Part shown: piece after piece, positions 1-6,284 of the stretch
Layout of the letters: every line of letters begins with the position of its first letter
Numbering within the stretch: position 1 is the first letter of the stretch
Virus record (IMG/VR): IMGVR_UViG_2778261344_000018
Strand: one strand, 5' to 3'
Origin: a virus
Lineage: Duplodnaviria; Heunggongvirae; Uroviricota; Caudoviricetes
DNA length: 6,284 bases
Made by a program: the position numbers and the translations under genes
Notes under the pieces: model-generated
What the model was told of the DNA's origin: nothing
Database searches by the model: none
The model's input: the letters and a program-made list of their open reading frames with translations, nothing else

Positions 1-356
1 TCGCCGTCTGCCTCCGCAATGGCCACCGCCACATCCAGCACATCTTCCGCTTCACGCGTATCGTGTTTCACATCCTCGATCTCACGTAACGCCGCACGAC
101 GACCAATTTTAAAGTTCGTATCCAGCTGACCGATAATGGTTGCGCTAATCGCATTAATTTCTGACGTAAACGCGGACAACGCAGGCTGGTTACGCAAGAT
201 CTGCTCGATCTTCGCTTTCTCTGAAGCCTCACATTCACCATCTGCATAGGCCACCAGATAGGCAGCATTAATAACCGCCTGTGCCAGATCACGTTTCTCA
301 AACTTTTTAATTTCCACTGCCGCTCGGCGGGCTTTTTTACCAAAAATACCAAACAT
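1..356 (-). CDS. TerB-like domain protein (tellurite-resistance TerB family), 3' end beyond window start
   Basis: ATG at 356-354 (minus) preceded by AAGGAA SD; frame stays open to position 1 (so it is absent from the ORF track). My translation: MFGIFGKKARRAAVEIKKFEKRDLAQAVINAAYLVAYADGECEASEKAKIEQILRNQPALSAFTSEINAI... The AYADGE...E...I pattern resembles the TerB fold from memory; not verified by search. Confidence 0.5.
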   Translation of the reverse strand, partial: MFGIFGKKARRAAVEIKKFEKRDLAQAVINAAYLVAYADGECEASEKAKIEQILRNQPALSAFTSEINAISATIIGQLDTNFKIGRRAALREIEDVKHDTREAEDVLDVAVAIAEADG

Positions 357-486
357 CGTGACGTTCCTTTGGGTGGGTGAGCCAACGCCCGGGAGCGATC
401 TGCCCACAGAGAAAGTCACACTGACCACTCCGTAAGCTCACCCCCGAAAGGCTCTGTGGTTGATATGCGCCGGGCGTGGCGCGGAT

Positions 487-511
487 ACAAAAAAGGCCGC
501 CAATAGCGACC
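487..511 (-). terminator. Intrinsic terminator after the 69-aa ORF
   Basis: Minus strand reads GGTCGC-tattg-GCGGCC (one G.U pair) followed by TTTTTTGTAT; lies 35 nt past the stop of the 546..755 ORF. Confidence 0.5.
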
Positions 512-545
512 TCAGTTACGGGATTATTCTGGGGTTAAACGACTG

Positions 546-755
546 TTACTCCCCCCAGACAAAATCATCACTTCCTGTTCGATGCGAGCCATAGTGAACC
601 TCGTACTTATCTCCCATCTTTCTTGCTTCCGTTTCTGCGTCTTCCTCTGTCGCAAAAACCCCAACAAGATGCCAGGGCGAGCTTCTTACCACAGCCCAAC
701 CTTTAACCCATCCTTTGTTGTCCTTATCTTCCATTAACACTTCAGAAACAAACAT
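546..755 (-). CDS. Hypothetical small protein (69 aa), cargo gene downstream of the phage tRNA cluster
   Basis: Complete ORF with ATG at 755 and AAGGAG SD about 6 nt upstream; acidic, non-hydrophobic protein (MFVSEVLMEDKDNKGW...); no family recognised. Confidence 0.55.
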   Translation of the reverse strand: MFVSEVLMEDKDNKGWVKGWAVVRSSPWHLVGVFATEEDAETEARKMGDKYEVHYGSHRTGSDDFVWGE

Positions 756-807
756 ATTTATCTCCTTGTGGGTACCCAGAGATATTTTATGATTGCTCCC
801 GGTCAGA

Positions 808-1032
808 TCAATAAAGTGGCTTCAATTTTGCCTTAATGATCAAATCAGGGTGATTGACGGAATCGTACACCACCTCAATATTTTCATCCGTGGCGTCGAT
901 AAGATATTCTTTTACATAAGGACCTGTTGATTTTCCATGAAATACATCTTCAACAAGTACACTCTCCCCCTGAACAACACGAAAACTAACTTCTGTTTCG
1001 AACGGACCAATCGTCACCATCAGTTTTTTCAC
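808..1032 (-). CDS. Hypothetical small protein (74 aa; or 70 aa from the ATG at 1020)
   Basis: Complete ORF; strong AGGAGG SD at 1038-1043 just upstream of GTG 1032; soluble-looking (MKKLMVTIGPFETEV...), not a holin; no family recognised. Confidence 0.5.
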   Translation of the reverse strand: MKKLMVTIGPFETEVSFRVVQGESVLVEDVFHGKSTGPYVKEYLIDATDENIEVVYDSVNHPDLIIKAKLKPLY

Positions 1033-1081
1033 ATAGCCTCCTGATAAGCACTCGATTTATTAGTTAATGGTGTAACGCAGA

Positions 1082-1109
1082 TACAAAAAAAGGCCCGCAA
1101 AAGCGAGCC
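1082..1109 (-). terminator. Intrinsic terminator after the tRNA cluster
   Basis: Minus strand reads GGCTCGC-tttt-GCGGGCC followed by TTTTTTTGTAT, 14 nt past the 3' CCA of the last tRNA. Confidence 0.6.
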
Positions 1110-1122
1110 AAGTAAATAAATA

Positions 1123-1199
1123 TGGCGCGTTGTACTGGATTCGAACCAGTGACCGATTGCTTAGAAGGCAATTGCTCTGTCCGACTGAGCTAACAACGC
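1123..1199 (-). tRNA. argO: tRNA-Arg, anticodon UCU (reads AGA/AGG)
   Basis: 77-nt cloverleaf read by hand: acceptor GCGTTGT/ACAACGC, D-stem GCTC/GAGC, anticodon stem ATTGC/GCAAT with loop CTTCTAA, T-arm ACTGG-TTCGAAT-CCAGT, encoded CCA. Symbol follows the ileZ-argN-argO order remembered from Stx-phage literature. Confidence 0.85.
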
Positions 1200-1212
1200 A
1201 TGATGCTGATAA

Positions 1213-1289
1213 TGGACCGCCATCGGGGACTTGAACCCCGCACAGCCAGCTTCGAAGGCTGACGCTCTATCCCGATGAGCTAATGGCGG
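1213..1289 (-). tRNA. argN: tRNA-Arg, anticodon UCG (reads CGA/CGG)
   Basis: 77-nt cloverleaf: acceptor CCGCCAT/ATGGCGG, D-stem GCTC/GAGC, anticodon stem TCAGC/GCTGG with loop CTTCGAA, T-arm CGGGG-TTCAAGT-CCCCG, encoded CCA. C1:G72 and a U discriminator are atypical; isotype from anticodon only. Confidence 0.8.
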
Positions 1290-1296
1290 TTTGTGA

Positions 1297-1372
1297 TGGT
1301 GGCCCTTGCTGGATTTGAACCAGCGACCTGGCGATTATGAGTCGCTCGCTCTCACCACTGAGCTAAAGGGCC
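1297..1372 (-). tRNA. ileZ: tRNA with CAU anticodon, most likely tRNA-Ile2 (lysidine, reads AUA)
   Basis: 76-nt cloverleaf: acceptor GGCCCTT/AAGGGCC, anticodon loop CTCATAA, T-arm GCTGG-TTCAAAT-CCAGC, encoded CCA. Close to the E. coli ileX sequence as I remember it, which favours Ile2 over elongator Met. Confidence 0.8.
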
Positions 1373-1412: not shown

Positions 1413-1505
1413 TCATCCGTTCTGACTGACTAAATCCTGAACTTCCCTGACCGTCTGCTCAAAACGTTCAGTCTCCAGCTCAACGCCAATTGCACGACGC
1501 CCCAG
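1413..1505 (-). pseudogene. 3' remnant of a DNA methyltransferase gene (about 30 codons)
   Basis: Minus-strand frame ending at TGA (1415-1413) translates ...AAMSLGRRAIGVELETERFEQTVREVQDLVSQNG*, which matches the conserved LGRRxIGxE segment that follows the SAM-binding motif in N6/N4 methyltransferases. No start codon or N-terminal domain; upstream the frame runs into the terminator hairpin. Confidence 0.35.
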
Positions 1506-1532
1506 CGACATTGCTGCTTTGACGCTACAGAC

Positions 1533-3691: not shown

Positions 3692-3961
3692 TTACCTCCA
3701 GATGCGCTGCTGGAATGTGCGGGACGGACGCGGTGGGCGTTCGGAATAAGGGAGCCTGGCGGAGATTATCCAGTGACGACGATCGAAGCTGAGATCTTTC
3801 TGAAACTCGTAACCACGCCTGCGGTAACACTGGATCAGCCATTCGGCCTGTTCTTCAGTGCATAGGGGATGCTGGAACCAGTCGGTTTTAAATACGTGCG
3901 AACACCGCCCTTGCCTACTGGCAAGGGCGGCAGAATTGTGCAATCTGCTATCGTGCGCCAT
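3692..3961 (-). CDS. Rem-like small prophage protein (89 aa)
   Basis: ATG at 3961 with GGAG SD 7 nt upstream; its stop abuts the start of the YdfU-like gene. Called Rem-like by position only. Confidence 0.45.
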   Translation of the reverse strand: MAHDSRLHNSAALASRQGRCSHVFKTDWFQHPLCTEEQAEWLIQCYRRRGYEFQKDLSFDRRHWIISARLPYSERPPRPSRTFQQRIWR

Positions 3962-4014: not shown

Positions 4015-4242
4015 TTATAGCTGCTTCTGAATATCATCAACAGGTAATCCTGCCAACTCTCTTACCTCAGAAAGAAGAGAAAGGCTTACAACAACCTCAT
4101 TACTTCGCATAACAAAACCACATTGAAAAGAACCATCACTGTTTCTGTAAACAACAACCGGGCGCGTGCTCTCATAAAACCCCGGGATCAAACTGGCTGG
4201 GATTTTCACAACACCTCCTGACGTAAAGGAAATGAAATGCAT
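4015..4242 (-). CDS. Small protein (75 aa) with possible AbrB/MazE-like swapped-hairpin motif
   Basis: ATG at 4242 with a GAGAGAAG-type SD. The segment VKIPASLIPGF...RPVVVYRNSDGSFQ resembles the AbrB/MazE/SpoVT signature; weak, eye-only. Divergent from the plus-strand TA operon. Confidence 0.4.
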   Translation of the reverse strand: MHFISFTSGGVVKIPASLIPGFYESTRPVVVYRNSDGSFQCGFVMRSNEVVVSLSLLSEVRELAGLPVDDIQKQL

Positions 4243-4430
4243 TATCGCTTCTCTCGGACTATAACCATGAAAAGAGACGCATTTCACTCAGTAAATCTGA
4301 GGATTTTATGCGCAAGAACAATGACTTTTTCTGTCTGCCGTTTATACAATCTGAATTACGTCTGTTTTTTGAACACCGATAAATCAGCAAGCATTCTCAA
4401 ATAAAGATTGCCTCCATAGTCCACATGGTG

Positions 4431-4465: not shown

Positions 4466-4837
4466 ATGCGAATTTTCAAAAACGCCTGGTTTGAACGTTT
4501 CGCCCGAAAACATCGGATTTCCGATAAATCGCTGCGCAAAATCGTGGAGCAGGCCGATAAGGGGATCATATCCGCAAATTTGGGTAGTGGTGTCATTAAA
4601 CAAAGATTAGCCCGAAGTGGTGGCGGAAAATCAGGCGGTTACCGGACAATAATTTTTTACCGCGTTGCAGAAAAAGCCTTTTTCATCTACGCATACGCAA
4701 AGAATGAACGAGAGAATATCACTGCTATAGAGGAAAATGCTTTTCGAAAAGCCGCTCCCCATGTCCTCAATCTTACTGATGAACAGCTGGCACAATTGAT
4801 TCAACAAGGCCAGTTCACGGAGGTACCCAATGAGTAA
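4466..4837 (+). CDS. Type II toxin, RelE/ParE superfamily (HigB-2-like), 123 aa
   Basis: Complete ORF, ATG at 4466. Core ...RLARSGGGKSGGYRTIIFYRVAEKAFFIYAYAKNERENI... matches the Gly-rich/RxI(I/F)Y/KNE pattern of HigB-2-type toxins as I remember them; its stop overlaps the next gene's start by 8 nt. Confidence 0.6.
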   Translation: MRIFKNAWFERFARKHRISDKSLRKIVEQADKGIISANLGSGVIKQRLARSGGGKSGGYRTIIFYRVAEKAFFIYAYAKNERENITAIEENAFRKAAPHVLNLTDEQLAQLIQQGQFTEVPNE

Positions 4838-5147
4838 AAATTACCGCAGTGATGCACTTGCATCTGTACATGAAATGATGGAGTCACTCCATGATATCGG
4901 TGCAATCACAAAACAAACTATGCGCGAATTCGATGAAACTTGTCTTCAGCCTGCGCCGGTAATGTCTCCGGAAAGGATCCGTGCACTGCGAGAACGAGAG
5001 CATCTGTCTCAACCTGTTTTTGCCAGATACCTCAACGTCAGTAAAAACCTGATATCAGACTGGGAACGAGGAGTGAAACGCCCGGGAGGTGCAGCTCTTC
5101 GGCTTCTTTCAGTTGTCGAGAAAAACGGGATCCAGGTAATATCCTGA
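4830..5147 (+). CDS. HTH (XRE/Cro-C1 type) antitoxin, HigA-2-like, 105 aa
   Basis: ATG at 4830 with GGAGG SD 6 nt upstream, translationally coupled to the toxin. C-terminal SQPVFARYLNVSKNLISDWERGVKRPGGAALRLL is a typical helix-turn-helix. Confidence 0.65.
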   Translation: MSKNYRSDALASVHEMMESLHDIGAITKQTMREFDETCLQPAPVMSPERIRALREREHLSQPVFARYLNVSKNLISDWERGVKRPGGAALRLLSVVEKNGIQVIS

Positions 5148-5155
5148 TATTCTAA

Positions 5156-5190
5156 TACAACAAAACCCGCCGAAGCAGGTTAAGTGCGGG
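5156..5190 (-). terminator. Probable terminator of the hok transcript
   Basis: Minus-strand stem ACCCGC/GCGGGT (5165-5170 with 5186-5191) with a 15-nt loop, followed by TTTTGTTGTATT. The large loop lowers confidence. Confidence 0.35.
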
Positions 5191-5220
5191 TGCGTTGAGG
5201 ATGCCTGACACATCAGAGGT

Positions 5221-5242
5221 GGCGAGGGATTTCTCCCTCGCC
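5221..5242. other. Perfect 9-bp stem hairpin in the convergent intergenic region
   Basis: GGCGAGGGA-tttc-TCCCTCGCC lies between the ends of the plus-strand TA operon and minus-strand hok. No clean U-tract on either strand; could be part of the hok 3' fold-back element. Confidence 0.4.
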
Positions 5243-5249
5243 AGGTCTC

Positions 5250-5405
5250 TTACTCCTCAGGTTCGTAAGCTGTGAAGACAGCGACCTCCGTCTGGCCGGT
5301 TCGGATTCGTACCTCGCAGAGGTCTTTCCTCGTTACCAGTGCCGTCACTATGACGGTTAAACAGATGACGATCAGGGCGATTAACATCGCCTTTTGCTGC
5401 TTCAT
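5250..5405 (-). CDS. hokD: Hok/Gef-family membrane toxin (51 aa), HokD-like
   Basis: ATG at 5405 with AAGGAG SD. MKQQKAMLIALIVICLTVIVTALVTRKDLCEVRIRTGQTEVAVFTAYEPEE has the single TM helix and conserved Cys/Glu C-terminus of Hok. The track's 70-aa ORF is an in-frame extension from ATG 5462 with no SD. Confidence 0.85.
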   Translation of the reverse strand: MKQQKAMLIALIVICLTVIVTALVTRKDLCEVRIRTGQTEVAVFTAYEPEE

Positions 5406-5639
5406 AGCCTGCTTCTCCTTGCCTTTCGGCACGTAAGAGGCTAACCTACATGTGCAAAGCATGAAATTGGCCTCAGATTAATGTTAAGCGTCCTGCAAGA
5501 CGCGTAATGTTAACTGGGGCTTTTCTCTGTCTGCCTTACGGCGGCATGCCCGAGGCAGACAGCCTCAAGCACCCGCAGCAATTCTACTTAACTCTTCTTT
5601 CCCCGCAAATCATTTTATCCCCGATGGTAATGTTCTCCC

Positions 5640-5659
5640 GATATGGGAATTCCCATATC
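5640..5659. repeat. Perfect 20-bp palindrome centred on GAATTC
   Basis: GATATGGGAA|TTCCCATATC is exactly self-complementary; it lies 18 bp past the stop of the truncated gene and upstream of the hok leader. No U-tract, so more likely a dimeric-protein binding site than a terminator. Confidence 0.5.
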
Positions 5660-5676
5660 AAGGTTAACTCAATCGG

Positions 5677-6085
5677 TTAAAGCTCCATTAATTTTCCGGC
5701 CAGTTCATCTCGTGGCATTACCAGCCATCCGCGCGATTTAAGCAAAGCCAGGGCTTCTTCAACCGTCACCAGCTGGCCAGGCGCATAACTTCGGATGAAG
5801 GCGGTTTTATCGTCACGGATCGCCAGGTGAAAATCGATATTCATTTTTCCCATAGCCCGCTCTTTCTCGTACTGGTTGAAGTAACTGTCTTCGAGTTTTT
5901 CGAATACTTCCCACGCCTGATCGGTTTCGAGCATTTTTGCATGACGGGCTGCTCCGCGTTCTGTCCAGAGGATGAGAGTGCGGGTTTTGGGAGAAATTTT
6001 CACCTCATTTTGCGACTCGTTTAAAACTAGTCGCAAATTTTTGAGCTCATCACCAACAGCTTTAAAGAAGTGTTTTCCCTCAATA
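5677..6085 (-). pseudogene. 5'-truncated prophage gene (about 136 codons remain), interrupted by IS insertion
   Basis: The frame ending at TAA 5679-5677 runs upstream into the IS terminal repeat at 6086. The first in-frame Met of the non-IS part is about 50 codons in, so the native N-terminus is missing. Product unknown (possibly Bro-N/antirepressor-like; very tentative). Confidence 0.45.
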
Positions 6086-6284
6086 TGAACCGCCCCGGGT
6101 TTCCTGGAGAGTGTTTTATCTGTGAACTCAGGCTGCCAGATCATTATTTCCGATGGAAGCATAATAAGCTTTTTCTGCTTCTGCCGGAGGAATATGGCCC
6201 AGCCTTTCCAGCAATCGTCGATTGTTATACCAGTCCACCCACGTGAGTGTGGCCAGTTCCACTTCTGCACGGTTTTTCCAGCTC
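6086..6284 (-). mobile_element. Right end of an IS3-family insertion sequence (IS629/IS1203-like), continuing beyond the window
   Basis: Plus strand at 6086 reads TGAACCGCCCCGGGTTTCCTGGAGAGTG..., which I recognise from memory as the IS629 terminal inverted repeat; a transposase reading frame on the minus strand ends 42 bp inside it. Confidence 0.65.
6128..6284 (-). CDS. IS3-family transposase OrfB, C-terminal 51 codons (5' part outside window)
   Basis: Minus frame open from the window edge translates ...SWKNRAEVELATLTWVDWYNNRRLLERLGHIPPAEAEKAYYASIGNDDLAA*, stop at 6130-6128. The WVDWYNNRRL...PPAE tail is typical of the rve integrase-core C-terminus. Not in the ORF track because it has no start in the window. 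Confidence 0.65.
   Translation of the reverse strand, partial: SWKNRAEVELATLTWVDWYNNRRLLERLGHIPPAEAEKAYYASIGNNDLAA

Follow-up and report, generated by a model that had tools for sequence, protein, structure and literature searches.

Introduction

In lambdoid phages that convert their hosts to Shiga toxin (Stx) production, the toxin genes stxAB follow the late antiterminator gene Q, the pR'/tR' region, the tRNA genes ileZ-argN-argO and a terminator, and precede nanS-p and the lysis genes; expression of stx2 by Q-dependent late read-through is well established. As this slot carries Shiga toxin, its other occupants matter for the biology of enterohaemorrhagic Escherichia coli (EHEC). Here we analyse the occupants of the slot in a stretch of 6284 bases of tailed-phage DNA (IMG/VR virus record IMGVR_UViG_2778261344_000018), referred to in its entirety as the window, whose positions are used as coordinates throughout. 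The locus of interest, 1–1110 on the minus strand, comprises two small genes for proteins of 74 and 69 amino acids (aa) and a gene of the TerB family, which we identify as tciA. As with stxAB, Q, pR'/tR', ileZ-argN-argO and a terminator lie upstream of this cargo and nanS-p and lysis genes downstream, and Q-dependent late expression is presumed; in contrast to stxAB, the cargo is unrelated to the toxin genes and devoid of toxin domains.

Three further groups of described elements lend themselves to comparison. Classical morons, as known from HK97/HK022 and as lambda bor and lom, are extra cassettes between genes that are adjacent in a relative, with a terminator of their own and a deviant G+C content. 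The pair of small genes shares all of these features, but consists of two genes instead of one, and a crude scan of the window copy did not demonstrate a promoter of its own. In phage P1, tciA and tciB, whose names derive from sequence similarity alone, are non-essential, which is the sole functional datum that we found. As in P1, the TciA homologue of the present locus is followed by a TciB-like gene; unlike in P1, no equivalent of tciC was seen, and the pair resides in a lambdoid late operon between tRNAs and nanS-p. Finally, three defence systems are known in which TerB domains were recently validated; the anti-phage systems Bunzi, Shango and Dionysus contain TerB, for which 'membrane surveillance' has been proposed (bioRxiv 10.1101/2022.05.11.491447; 10.1101/2025.09.30.679545). 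Like these systems, the present locus belongs to a mobile element and combines a gene for a TerB-domain protein with one for a membrane protein, whereas the helicase/ATPase, pore-forming toxin and MAEBL partners of those systems are absent here, TciB amounts to a 55-aa hairpin only, and PADLOC returned no match to TciA/TciB.

Two stacked cassettes between Q and the lysis genes

We consider it probable that positions 1–1110 contain two accessory cassettes (morons) that are independent of each other and sit one after the other in the slot between Q and the lysis genes. The prophage is a non-Stx lambdoid one, similar in kind to prophages of E. coli O145, O103 and O157; expression presumably depends on Q, and roles in conflict or at the membrane are presumed. 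The window covers the regulatory and late-control region of such a prophage on the reverse strand (Table 1), and prophages of Shiga toxin-producing or enteropathogenic E. coli (STEC/EPEC), O145 and O103 strains among them, match its bases 1–1400 at 99.6% identity. Followed in its direction of transcription, L001, the RefSeq locus of strain RM9872, comprises in succession a DUF968 protein, antiterminator Q, a DNA-methylase remnant, tRNA-Ile, tRNA-Arg, tRNA-Arg, the 74-aa and 69-aa hypothetical proteins, a TerB-family protein (143 aa), a DUF3927 protein (55 aa), a SASA-family esterase (nanS-p type, 1.85-kb gene), holin, YdfR, lysozyme and terminase; terminators in the 99.6%-identical RefSeq locus stand after the tRNAs, after the 69-aa gene and after tciB. 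A preliminary description of this DNA, made from the letters of the window and a list of its open reading frames (ORFs), had placed the cargo in the slot where Stx phages carry stxAB, and the genes do lie between the tRNA terminator and nanS-p with the lysis genes. The ORFs it listed, two small ones with strong Shine-Dalgarno sequences (SDs) and a TerB ORF running off the window, are all present on the minus strand, and the further partner that it suspected beyond the window exists in the form of tciB, the DUF3927 gene.

The same description regarded the three genes as one cargo unit. Judged by distribution, they fall into two cassettes, and the finding it had named as speaking against a joint unit, a lack of co-occurrence outside this one prophage, is largely what emerged. 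Of 5426 complete E. coli genomes, 859 (16%) have the pair of TerB and DUF3927 genes, at 4034 places in all, the median being six copies among positive genomes; the pair of small ORFs, in contrast, is found in 110 complete E. coli genomes, for which reason we treat the cassettes as independent. Viewed from the side of the small genes, we scanned 116 loci encoding a 69-aa-family protein, in genomes and viral contigs, with hidden Markov models (HMMs) of the families. A TciA homologue lay within 6 kb of the pair in 35 of these 116 loci, mostly close relatives of the window. Since TerB is near so few of them, its link to the pair appears to be incidental and the two small genes form a conserved cassette of their own.

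That the 74-aa, 69-aa and TerB proteins (with TciB) nevertheless co-function as one system is, in our judgement, very improbable. The three genes are neighbours in the same orientation in about 90 complete E. coli genomes, and in a few more distant loci, too, the pair has a TerB gene no farther than 6 kb away (5 of 13 in the L107 group, and L010). But the co-occurrence in E. coli carries little weight, because the copies are at least 99% identical in 102 of the 110 genomes and the loci inspected share one and the same prophage context. In more than 30 distinct variants the surroundings of the pair lack TerB, about 97% of the tciAB places, and thus almost all of them, are without the small ORFs, between the two units lie a terminator and the 136-nt tciA leader, and phage Evi represents an exact empty site for the small genes. 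The reading as a three-gene system is largely refuted by these distributions.

Table 1. Positions and strands of the main features in the window, with the basis of each assignment.
Feature	Position	Strand	Basis
tciA (TerB family), codons 1–118 of 143; cut off by the window edge at base 1	1–356	−	Pfam TerB; PHROG 632; PDB 2jxu
tciA leader, 136 nt, G+C 0.60, predicted long hairpin	357–492	−	fold of 350–520 (−): −69 kcal/mol, z = −2.45
Right direct-repeat copy, contains terminator	473–516		repeat scan; single copy in Evi
Intrinsic terminator closing the 74/69-aa cassette: GAGGTCGCTATTGGCGGCCTT then T-run	493–513	−	terminator scan
69-aa gene (F69)	546–755	−	ATG start, AAGGAG upstream; ORF list
Spacer, 52 nt, carries the SD of the 69-aa gene	756–807	−	sequence
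74-aa gene (F74)	808–1032	−	GTG start, AGGAGG SD 5 nt upstream; ORF list
Left direct-repeat copy, holds the terminator following argO (1109–1092, minus strand)	1069–1113		repeat and terminator scans
tRNA block ileZ (anticodon CAT), argN (TCG), argO (TCT)	1123–1372	−	ARAGORN, Rfam, RefSeq, Stx2-phage identity
Late antiterminator Q	1875–2630	−	Pfam Antiterm PF03589, E = 2e-52; RefSeq annotation

The 74/69-aa cassette as an insertion

The cassette of the two small genes is a 566-bp insertion at approximately 510–1075. In phage Evi, the counterpart of window 1–509 is joined directly to that of 1076–1410 via a single terminator copy, homology to phage JLK-2012 ends at window 509–512, and homology to Stx2 phages (933W, VT2-Sakai; 95–96% identity over bases 1076–1400) begins at 1076. 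The insertion is flanked by a direct repeat of about 45 nt (79–82% identity between the two copies; repeat families D1–D3) that contains the terminator, and entry of the cassette would most likely have occurred by recombination at this duplicated terminator sequence. The location between genes that are adjacent in relatives, the terminator after each unit and the deviant, lower G+C content are those of a moron, in accordance with the moron position that had been proposed for the locus. G+C amounts to 0.39 in the 74-aa ORF, 0.46 in the 69-aa ORF and 0.42 in the cassette, compared with 0.484 in the window and 0.50–0.60 in the flanks, which confirms the earlier impression of small ORFs that are more AT-rich than their surroundings.

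The terminators deserve some differentiation, as each unit had been thought to be closed by its own. A terminator indeed follows the pair (513–493), and the one of the tciAB unit maps outside the window after tciB (L001 8559–8541), but the scan yielded none between the two small ORFs, so that these constitute a single unit. A terminator-like hairpin within 130 nt after the 69-aa-family gene recurs in 54 of 59 distinct cassettes, with differing stem sequences. It seems that cassettes are exchanged across genera at terminators, which would serve as shared junctions.

Two further observations on terminator sequences may be added. A terminator-type motif consisting of a GC hairpin and ACAAAAAA on the plus strand is present in four copies within 1.3 kb (483–500, 1079–1096, 1529–1546 and 1738–1755). 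The post-tciB terminator (L001 8541–8559, GGCTGCGCATGGCGTGGCC) recurs almost exactly in Xenorhabdus hominickii (L013), just upstream of the 74-aa gene.

Coding evidence and protein features of the small genes

The 74-aa and 69-aa ORFs are real genes, given that their ratios of non-synonymous to synonymous substitution rates (dN/dS) are well below 1 and that the families are conserved across genera. Comparison with a Salmonella copy gave dN/dS values of 0.18 (74-aa gene) and 0.41 (69-aa gene), and comparison with distant copies gave 0.07–0.16 for the 69-aa gene. Homologues at 35–70% identity occur across Enterobacterales, and the 69-aa family extends to Pseudomonas and alphaproteobacteria. The ORFs are short and neither reaches a Pfam threshold, as one would expect of chance frames in a non-coding spacer; this explanation, to which we attach practically no probability, is ruled out by the dN/dS values of 0.07–0.41, the homologues at the above identities, the strong SDs and a confident AlphaFold2 (AF2) model of the 74-aa protein.

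This model (predicted local distance difference test, pLDDT, 87) is all-beta with six strands, while that of the 69-aa protein is weak (pLDDT 59) with a predicted beta-beta-alpha-beta core. Neither protein has a signal peptide or a hydrophobic membrane segment, and both are soluble. The 74-aa protein matches PHROG 2571 (E = 2e-26) and the 69-aa protein PHROG 4280 (E = 6e-41), each a family of unknown function. A profile search with the 69-aa family, which is marked by the motifs SPWHL and YGSHRxGSDDF and by 24 invariant alignment columns, collected 503 clusters at 90% identity, all named 'hypothetical'. The 74-aa family is small and was reached solely by exhaustive HMMER search; two long repeat proteins in that search (P0026, P0027) were discarded as spurious, being MBG/SprB and LRR/HEAT-like repeat proteins. 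Pfam, NCBIfam and PADLOC gave nothing above threshold for either protein, profile searches with both families against PDB sequences produced no match below E = 0.6, and fold searches with the models returned no specific match, those for the 69-aa protein being noise. Affiliation with a characterised family, looked for in Pfam, PHROG, PADLOC, NCBIfam and fold searches, was thus not obtained for the small proteins, as had been supposed at the outset.

Two family labels were considered for the 69-aa protein and rejected. DUF7336 scored 17.1 bits against a cut-off of 25, with 4 of 11 members matched below threshold, and DUF2188 stems from a single UniRef cluster label, with no Pfam match in 21 family members. 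DUF2188 has been predicted to be conflict-related (cited in bioRxiv 10.1101/2022.04.27.489752); both DUFs resemble the 69-aa protein in size and predicted core, with all matches below Pfam thresholds.

Pairing and distribution of the small genes

The two small genes form a conserved two-gene cassette in which pairing is strong, but not obligate. In 94 of the 116 loci, a 74-aa-family gene is located immediately upstream of the 69-aa-family gene on the same strand. Order and strand are constant in the 95 loci with both genes, adjacency being broken in one locus interrupted by an insertion sequence (IS), and none of the 116 loci has the 74-aa family without the 69-aa family. The pair loci encode 63 distinct protein variants and include Salmonella, Xenorhabdus, Yersinia, Pseudocitrobacter, Scandinavium and many uncultured phages; in the cultured coliphage mEp237, the pair corresponds to gp60 and gp61. 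A Salmonella prophage carries the cassette with 93% identity over window 483–1291, in the order tRNA, terminator, 74, 73, terminator, holin, and without TerB. Three partial cassette copies inspected in E. coli turned out to be disruptions by IS3-family elements.

Each gene is also found on its own. The lone 69-aa family is present in Pseudomonas, Azotobacter, Ralstonia and alphaproteobacteria; in Pseudomonas phages, the gene is counter-oriented in the tail cluster, behind unrelated small genes. That these upstream genes might be distant relatives of the 74-aa gene was not borne out for the one tested (hhalign probability 0.2%). A lone 74-aa-family gene stands directly after Rz in Stx2a, Stx2c and Stx1a phages, and no 69-aa-family gene or remnant follows it there. 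In the Stx2a phage Stx2_EH1846 (L119 2501–2725) and 27 other phage records, this lone gene (about 41% identical) overlaps the stop codon of the Rz endopeptidase gene.

Two loci with unusual neighbourhoods were encountered. In Bordetella petrii (L033, approximately 5100–6183), our own ORF scan, as distinct from an annotation, gave one frame in which the 69-aa domain lies C-terminal to a trypsin-like protease domain (PF13365, E = 4e-11), an apparent fusion and the sole one seen, with a gene for a STAND/AAA_16-like ATPase next to it; the fusion hints at the 69-aa domain being a binding or sensor module. In a metagenomic phage contig (L010, 489–6932), the late region is crowded with conflict-type genes and encodes Q, a 656-aa SIR2_2 protein, a TerB-like gene, an antirepressor, a 74/69-type pair, a Band_7 protein and an Acb2/Tad1-hairpin protein.

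The tciA-tciB cassette

The part of TciA encoded in the window (118 residues) belongs to Pfam TerB (PF05099), with 39.2 bits against a cut-off of 24.4. The full 143-aa protein aligns over residues 15–137 with the solved Klebsiella TerB (PDB 2jxu, E = 4e-8), end to end with PHROG 632 'tellurite resistance' (E = 1e-68), and over its full length with the tciA product of phage P1 (41–52% identity, tblastn). Beyond base 1 follows tciB, a gene for a DUF3927 protein of 55 aa matching PHROG 1470 'TciB-like' (E = 4e-30) and having two hydrophobic stretches/helices by inspection of its sequence. In L001, the tciA stop and the tciB start overlap by 4 nt, suggesting translational coupling. A TciA homologue directly followed by a small hydrophobic TciB-like gene is the layout of a P1-type module. 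Phage JLK-2012 presents the order Q, three tRNAs, tciA, tciB, yjhS, S, R, Rz, with the pair annotated as tciA/tciB in the equivalent slot; the statement in the preliminary description that the combination was not recognisable as a described one therefore no longer holds for the TerB gene, a homologue of P1 tciA that is annotated TciA in the same slot of JLK-2012.

None of 131 phage records with a TciA homologue is Stx-converting by name, which makes tciAB and stxAB seem to alternate in the slot, tciAB being the usual occupant in EHEC-type prophages. The analysis shows a slot made up of exchangeable terminator-bounded cassettes: Stx phages have stxAB there, most non-Stx EHEC prophages have tciAB, and a minority have the 74/69-aa pair in addition. 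Moron architecture is textbook knowledge, tciAB in this slot is annotated in public records, and current concepts remain unchanged; new, to a modest extent, are the demonstration of two modules, the exact empty site with its repeat junctions, and a conserved uncharacterised 74/69-aa cassette with a cultured-phage representative. The value lies in a cleaner annotation and in two concrete experimental targets: tciA-tciB as a very abundant TerB module whose function is suggested by analogy, and the widespread, uncharacterised 74/69-aa pair, which is available in the cultured phage mEp237.

The leader upstream of tciA travels with the gene (97.8% identity in JLK-2012 and 89% in Evi) and gave no match in Rfam. 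In the literature, we found no paper for the four RefSeq protein accessions, and DUF3927 led to one work, on phage-plasmids. A preprint on Pas small RNAs (sRNAs) lists TerB as a neighbour of PasA/PasC and describes these sRNAs beside the holin/lysozyme operon and a sialic-acid esterase gene; by that description PasA/PasC would be expected beyond the window, which was not searched with Pas sequences.

Expression

A crude consensus scan of the minus strand found no sigma-70-like site in 1033–1110, upstream of the 74-aa gene, or in 357–492, the tciA leader. A promoter-like match overlapping the spacer (TTGATC-16-TAAAAT, 811–784) is weak, its score of 9 of 12 not exceeding the expectation from shuffled sequence. 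Because a convincing promoter was not seen and at least two terminators precede the cassettes downstream of pR', the bulk of transcription probably stems from Q-modified polymerase: after induction, this polymerase would supply most transcription of both cassettes by reading through the terminators, in the manner established for stx2.

Possible functions

TerB of the ter operon is amphitropic. By analogy with this protein and with the TerB proteins of Bunzi, Shango and Dionysus, TciA and TciB would probably form a module of the inner membrane that protects the envelope or excludes superinfecting phages. For the 74-aa and 69-aa proteins, a part in phage-host or phage-phage conflict as small binding proteins of the cytoplasm is probable, a weak inference drawn from their size, mobility and hot-spot location and from neighbours in related loci (SIR2, Band_7 and Acb2/Tad1-like genes). 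Going one step further, one may tentatively envisage the 74-aa beta-sandwich and the 69-aa protein as the two components of an undescribed conflict module in temperate phages of Enterobacterales. As a pair of counter-defence inhibitors or as an exclusion device directed at competing phages, this module would spread as a terminator-bounded cassette among late-region hot spots, and tciA-tciB would be a minimal TerB-based membrane exclusion system; to this combined proposal we grant a rather low probability.

The defence-system check that had been recommended for this locus did not bring up any matching defence model. In PADLOC-DB v2, which includes Shango and Bunzi, TciA reached E = 0.0056 at best (PDC-S48, 13.8 bits) and the 69-aa protein E = 0.014, and no match came up for the esterase, TciB or the 74-aa protein; NCBIfam offered no meaningful match for any of these five proteins.

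Given the location of the pair in many phages, either directly after Rz/Rz1 or just before the holin gene (L007, L009, L066, L069, L078, L093, L104 and mEp237), we also considered that it might be an accessory of the lysis cassette, regulating lysis timing or endolysin/spanin function. The overlap of the lone 74-aa homologue with the Rz stop codon in Stx2a, Stx2c and Stx1a phages, as well as a weak, sub-threshold resemblance of the 69-aa protein to peptidoglycan-binding SPOR domains, would fit this idea. Yet we deem it unlikely. In the present locus, tciAB and the 1.85-kb esterase gene intervene between the pair and the holin gene, other copies reside in tail or head-tail regions (L020, L091, L099), the Pseudomonas 69-aa gene runs counter to its tail cluster, the cassette possesses its own terminator, and the SPOR matches are not significant. 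Neither small protein has a signal peptide or membrane segment, and the edges of lysis cassettes are general hot spots for morons, as exemplified by lambda bor.

A toxin-antitoxin (TA) or abortive-infection module that stabilises or protects the prophage is a further candidate for the pair, which we rate as quite improbable. It is suggested by two small adjacent genes in a TA-rich region, with hokD/sok and a RelE/helix-turn-helix (HTH) pair in the window and HicAB and ParDE beside the Salmonella copy. Against this stand the negative outcome for TA families in Pfam, NCBIfam and PADLOC, the 52-nt gap with separate strong SDs and no overlap, the absence of an evident promoter/operator upstream, and the solo occurrence of each gene in intact phages, which would be unexpected for a toxin without its antidote. 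The pair thus shows neither the family match nor the tight coupling nor the obligate co-occurrence of type II TA modules.

Several points also weigh against the interpretation that we prefer, that is, two independent cassettes with Q-dependent expression and roles in conflict or at the membrane. Q-dependence and all functional statements are what we infer, and the conflict role has no positive support, with no PADLOC match and nothing specific from fold searches. That each small gene occurs solo weakens the claim that the two work jointly. As to expression, P1 tciA has annotated promoters (row H127), and a weak promoter of its own in the 136-nt leader is possible for the present tciA. Moreover, a conserved inverted repeat, GCATTACAGCAGGCATTCACTGAGTGCCTGTGATAATGC, with an extended -10-like element, TGTGATAAT, is located about 25–65 nt upstream of the 74-aa-family start in L011, L074, L077, L086, L088 and others. 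This repeat, a possible operator, promoter or RNA hairpin, is present in many non-E. coli copies and absent from the window copy. Together with the counter-oriented Pseudomonas 69-aa genes, the TGTGATAAT element hints at expression in the lysogen in some relatives.

Upstream block and remainder of the window

Between Q and the tRNAs lie the pR'/tR' region and the C-terminal remnant of a DNA methylase gene (1413–1526, minus strand), a pseudogene in RefSeq. The tRNA at 1297–1372 (minus strand) is called Met (anticodon CAT) by ARAGORN and tRNA-Ile by RefSeq; we take it to be of the ileZ type of Stx phages, read as Ile once lysidine-modified. An Rfam search of the whole window at E ≤ 1 returned the tRNAs and sok only, with zero matches in 1–1110.

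The sok antisense RNA (117 bits, E = 5e-27) accompanies a hokD-type type I toxin gene at 5250–5574 (minus strand), for which RefSeq has hokD at the matching place. At 4466–5147 on the plus strand, and hence opposite in orientation to the surrounding phage genes, a RelE/ParE-family toxin gene (123 aa, PF06296, E = 1e-47) overlaps an HTH antitoxin-like gene (105 aa). Two small ORFs on the minus strand between DUF968 and this RelE module, at 3692–3961 (89 aa) and 4015–4287 (90 aa), have no Pfam match; their RefSeq counterparts are hypothetical, the 89-aa ORF being annotated as such and the 90-aa frame being represented by a shorter 64-aa ORF inside it. At the far end of the window (5677–6284), a truncated antirepressor-like ORF with an ORF6N domain abuts an IS3-family transposase fragment (6128–6284), and since the O145 reference locus has different genes at this place, the window prophage is rearranged here.

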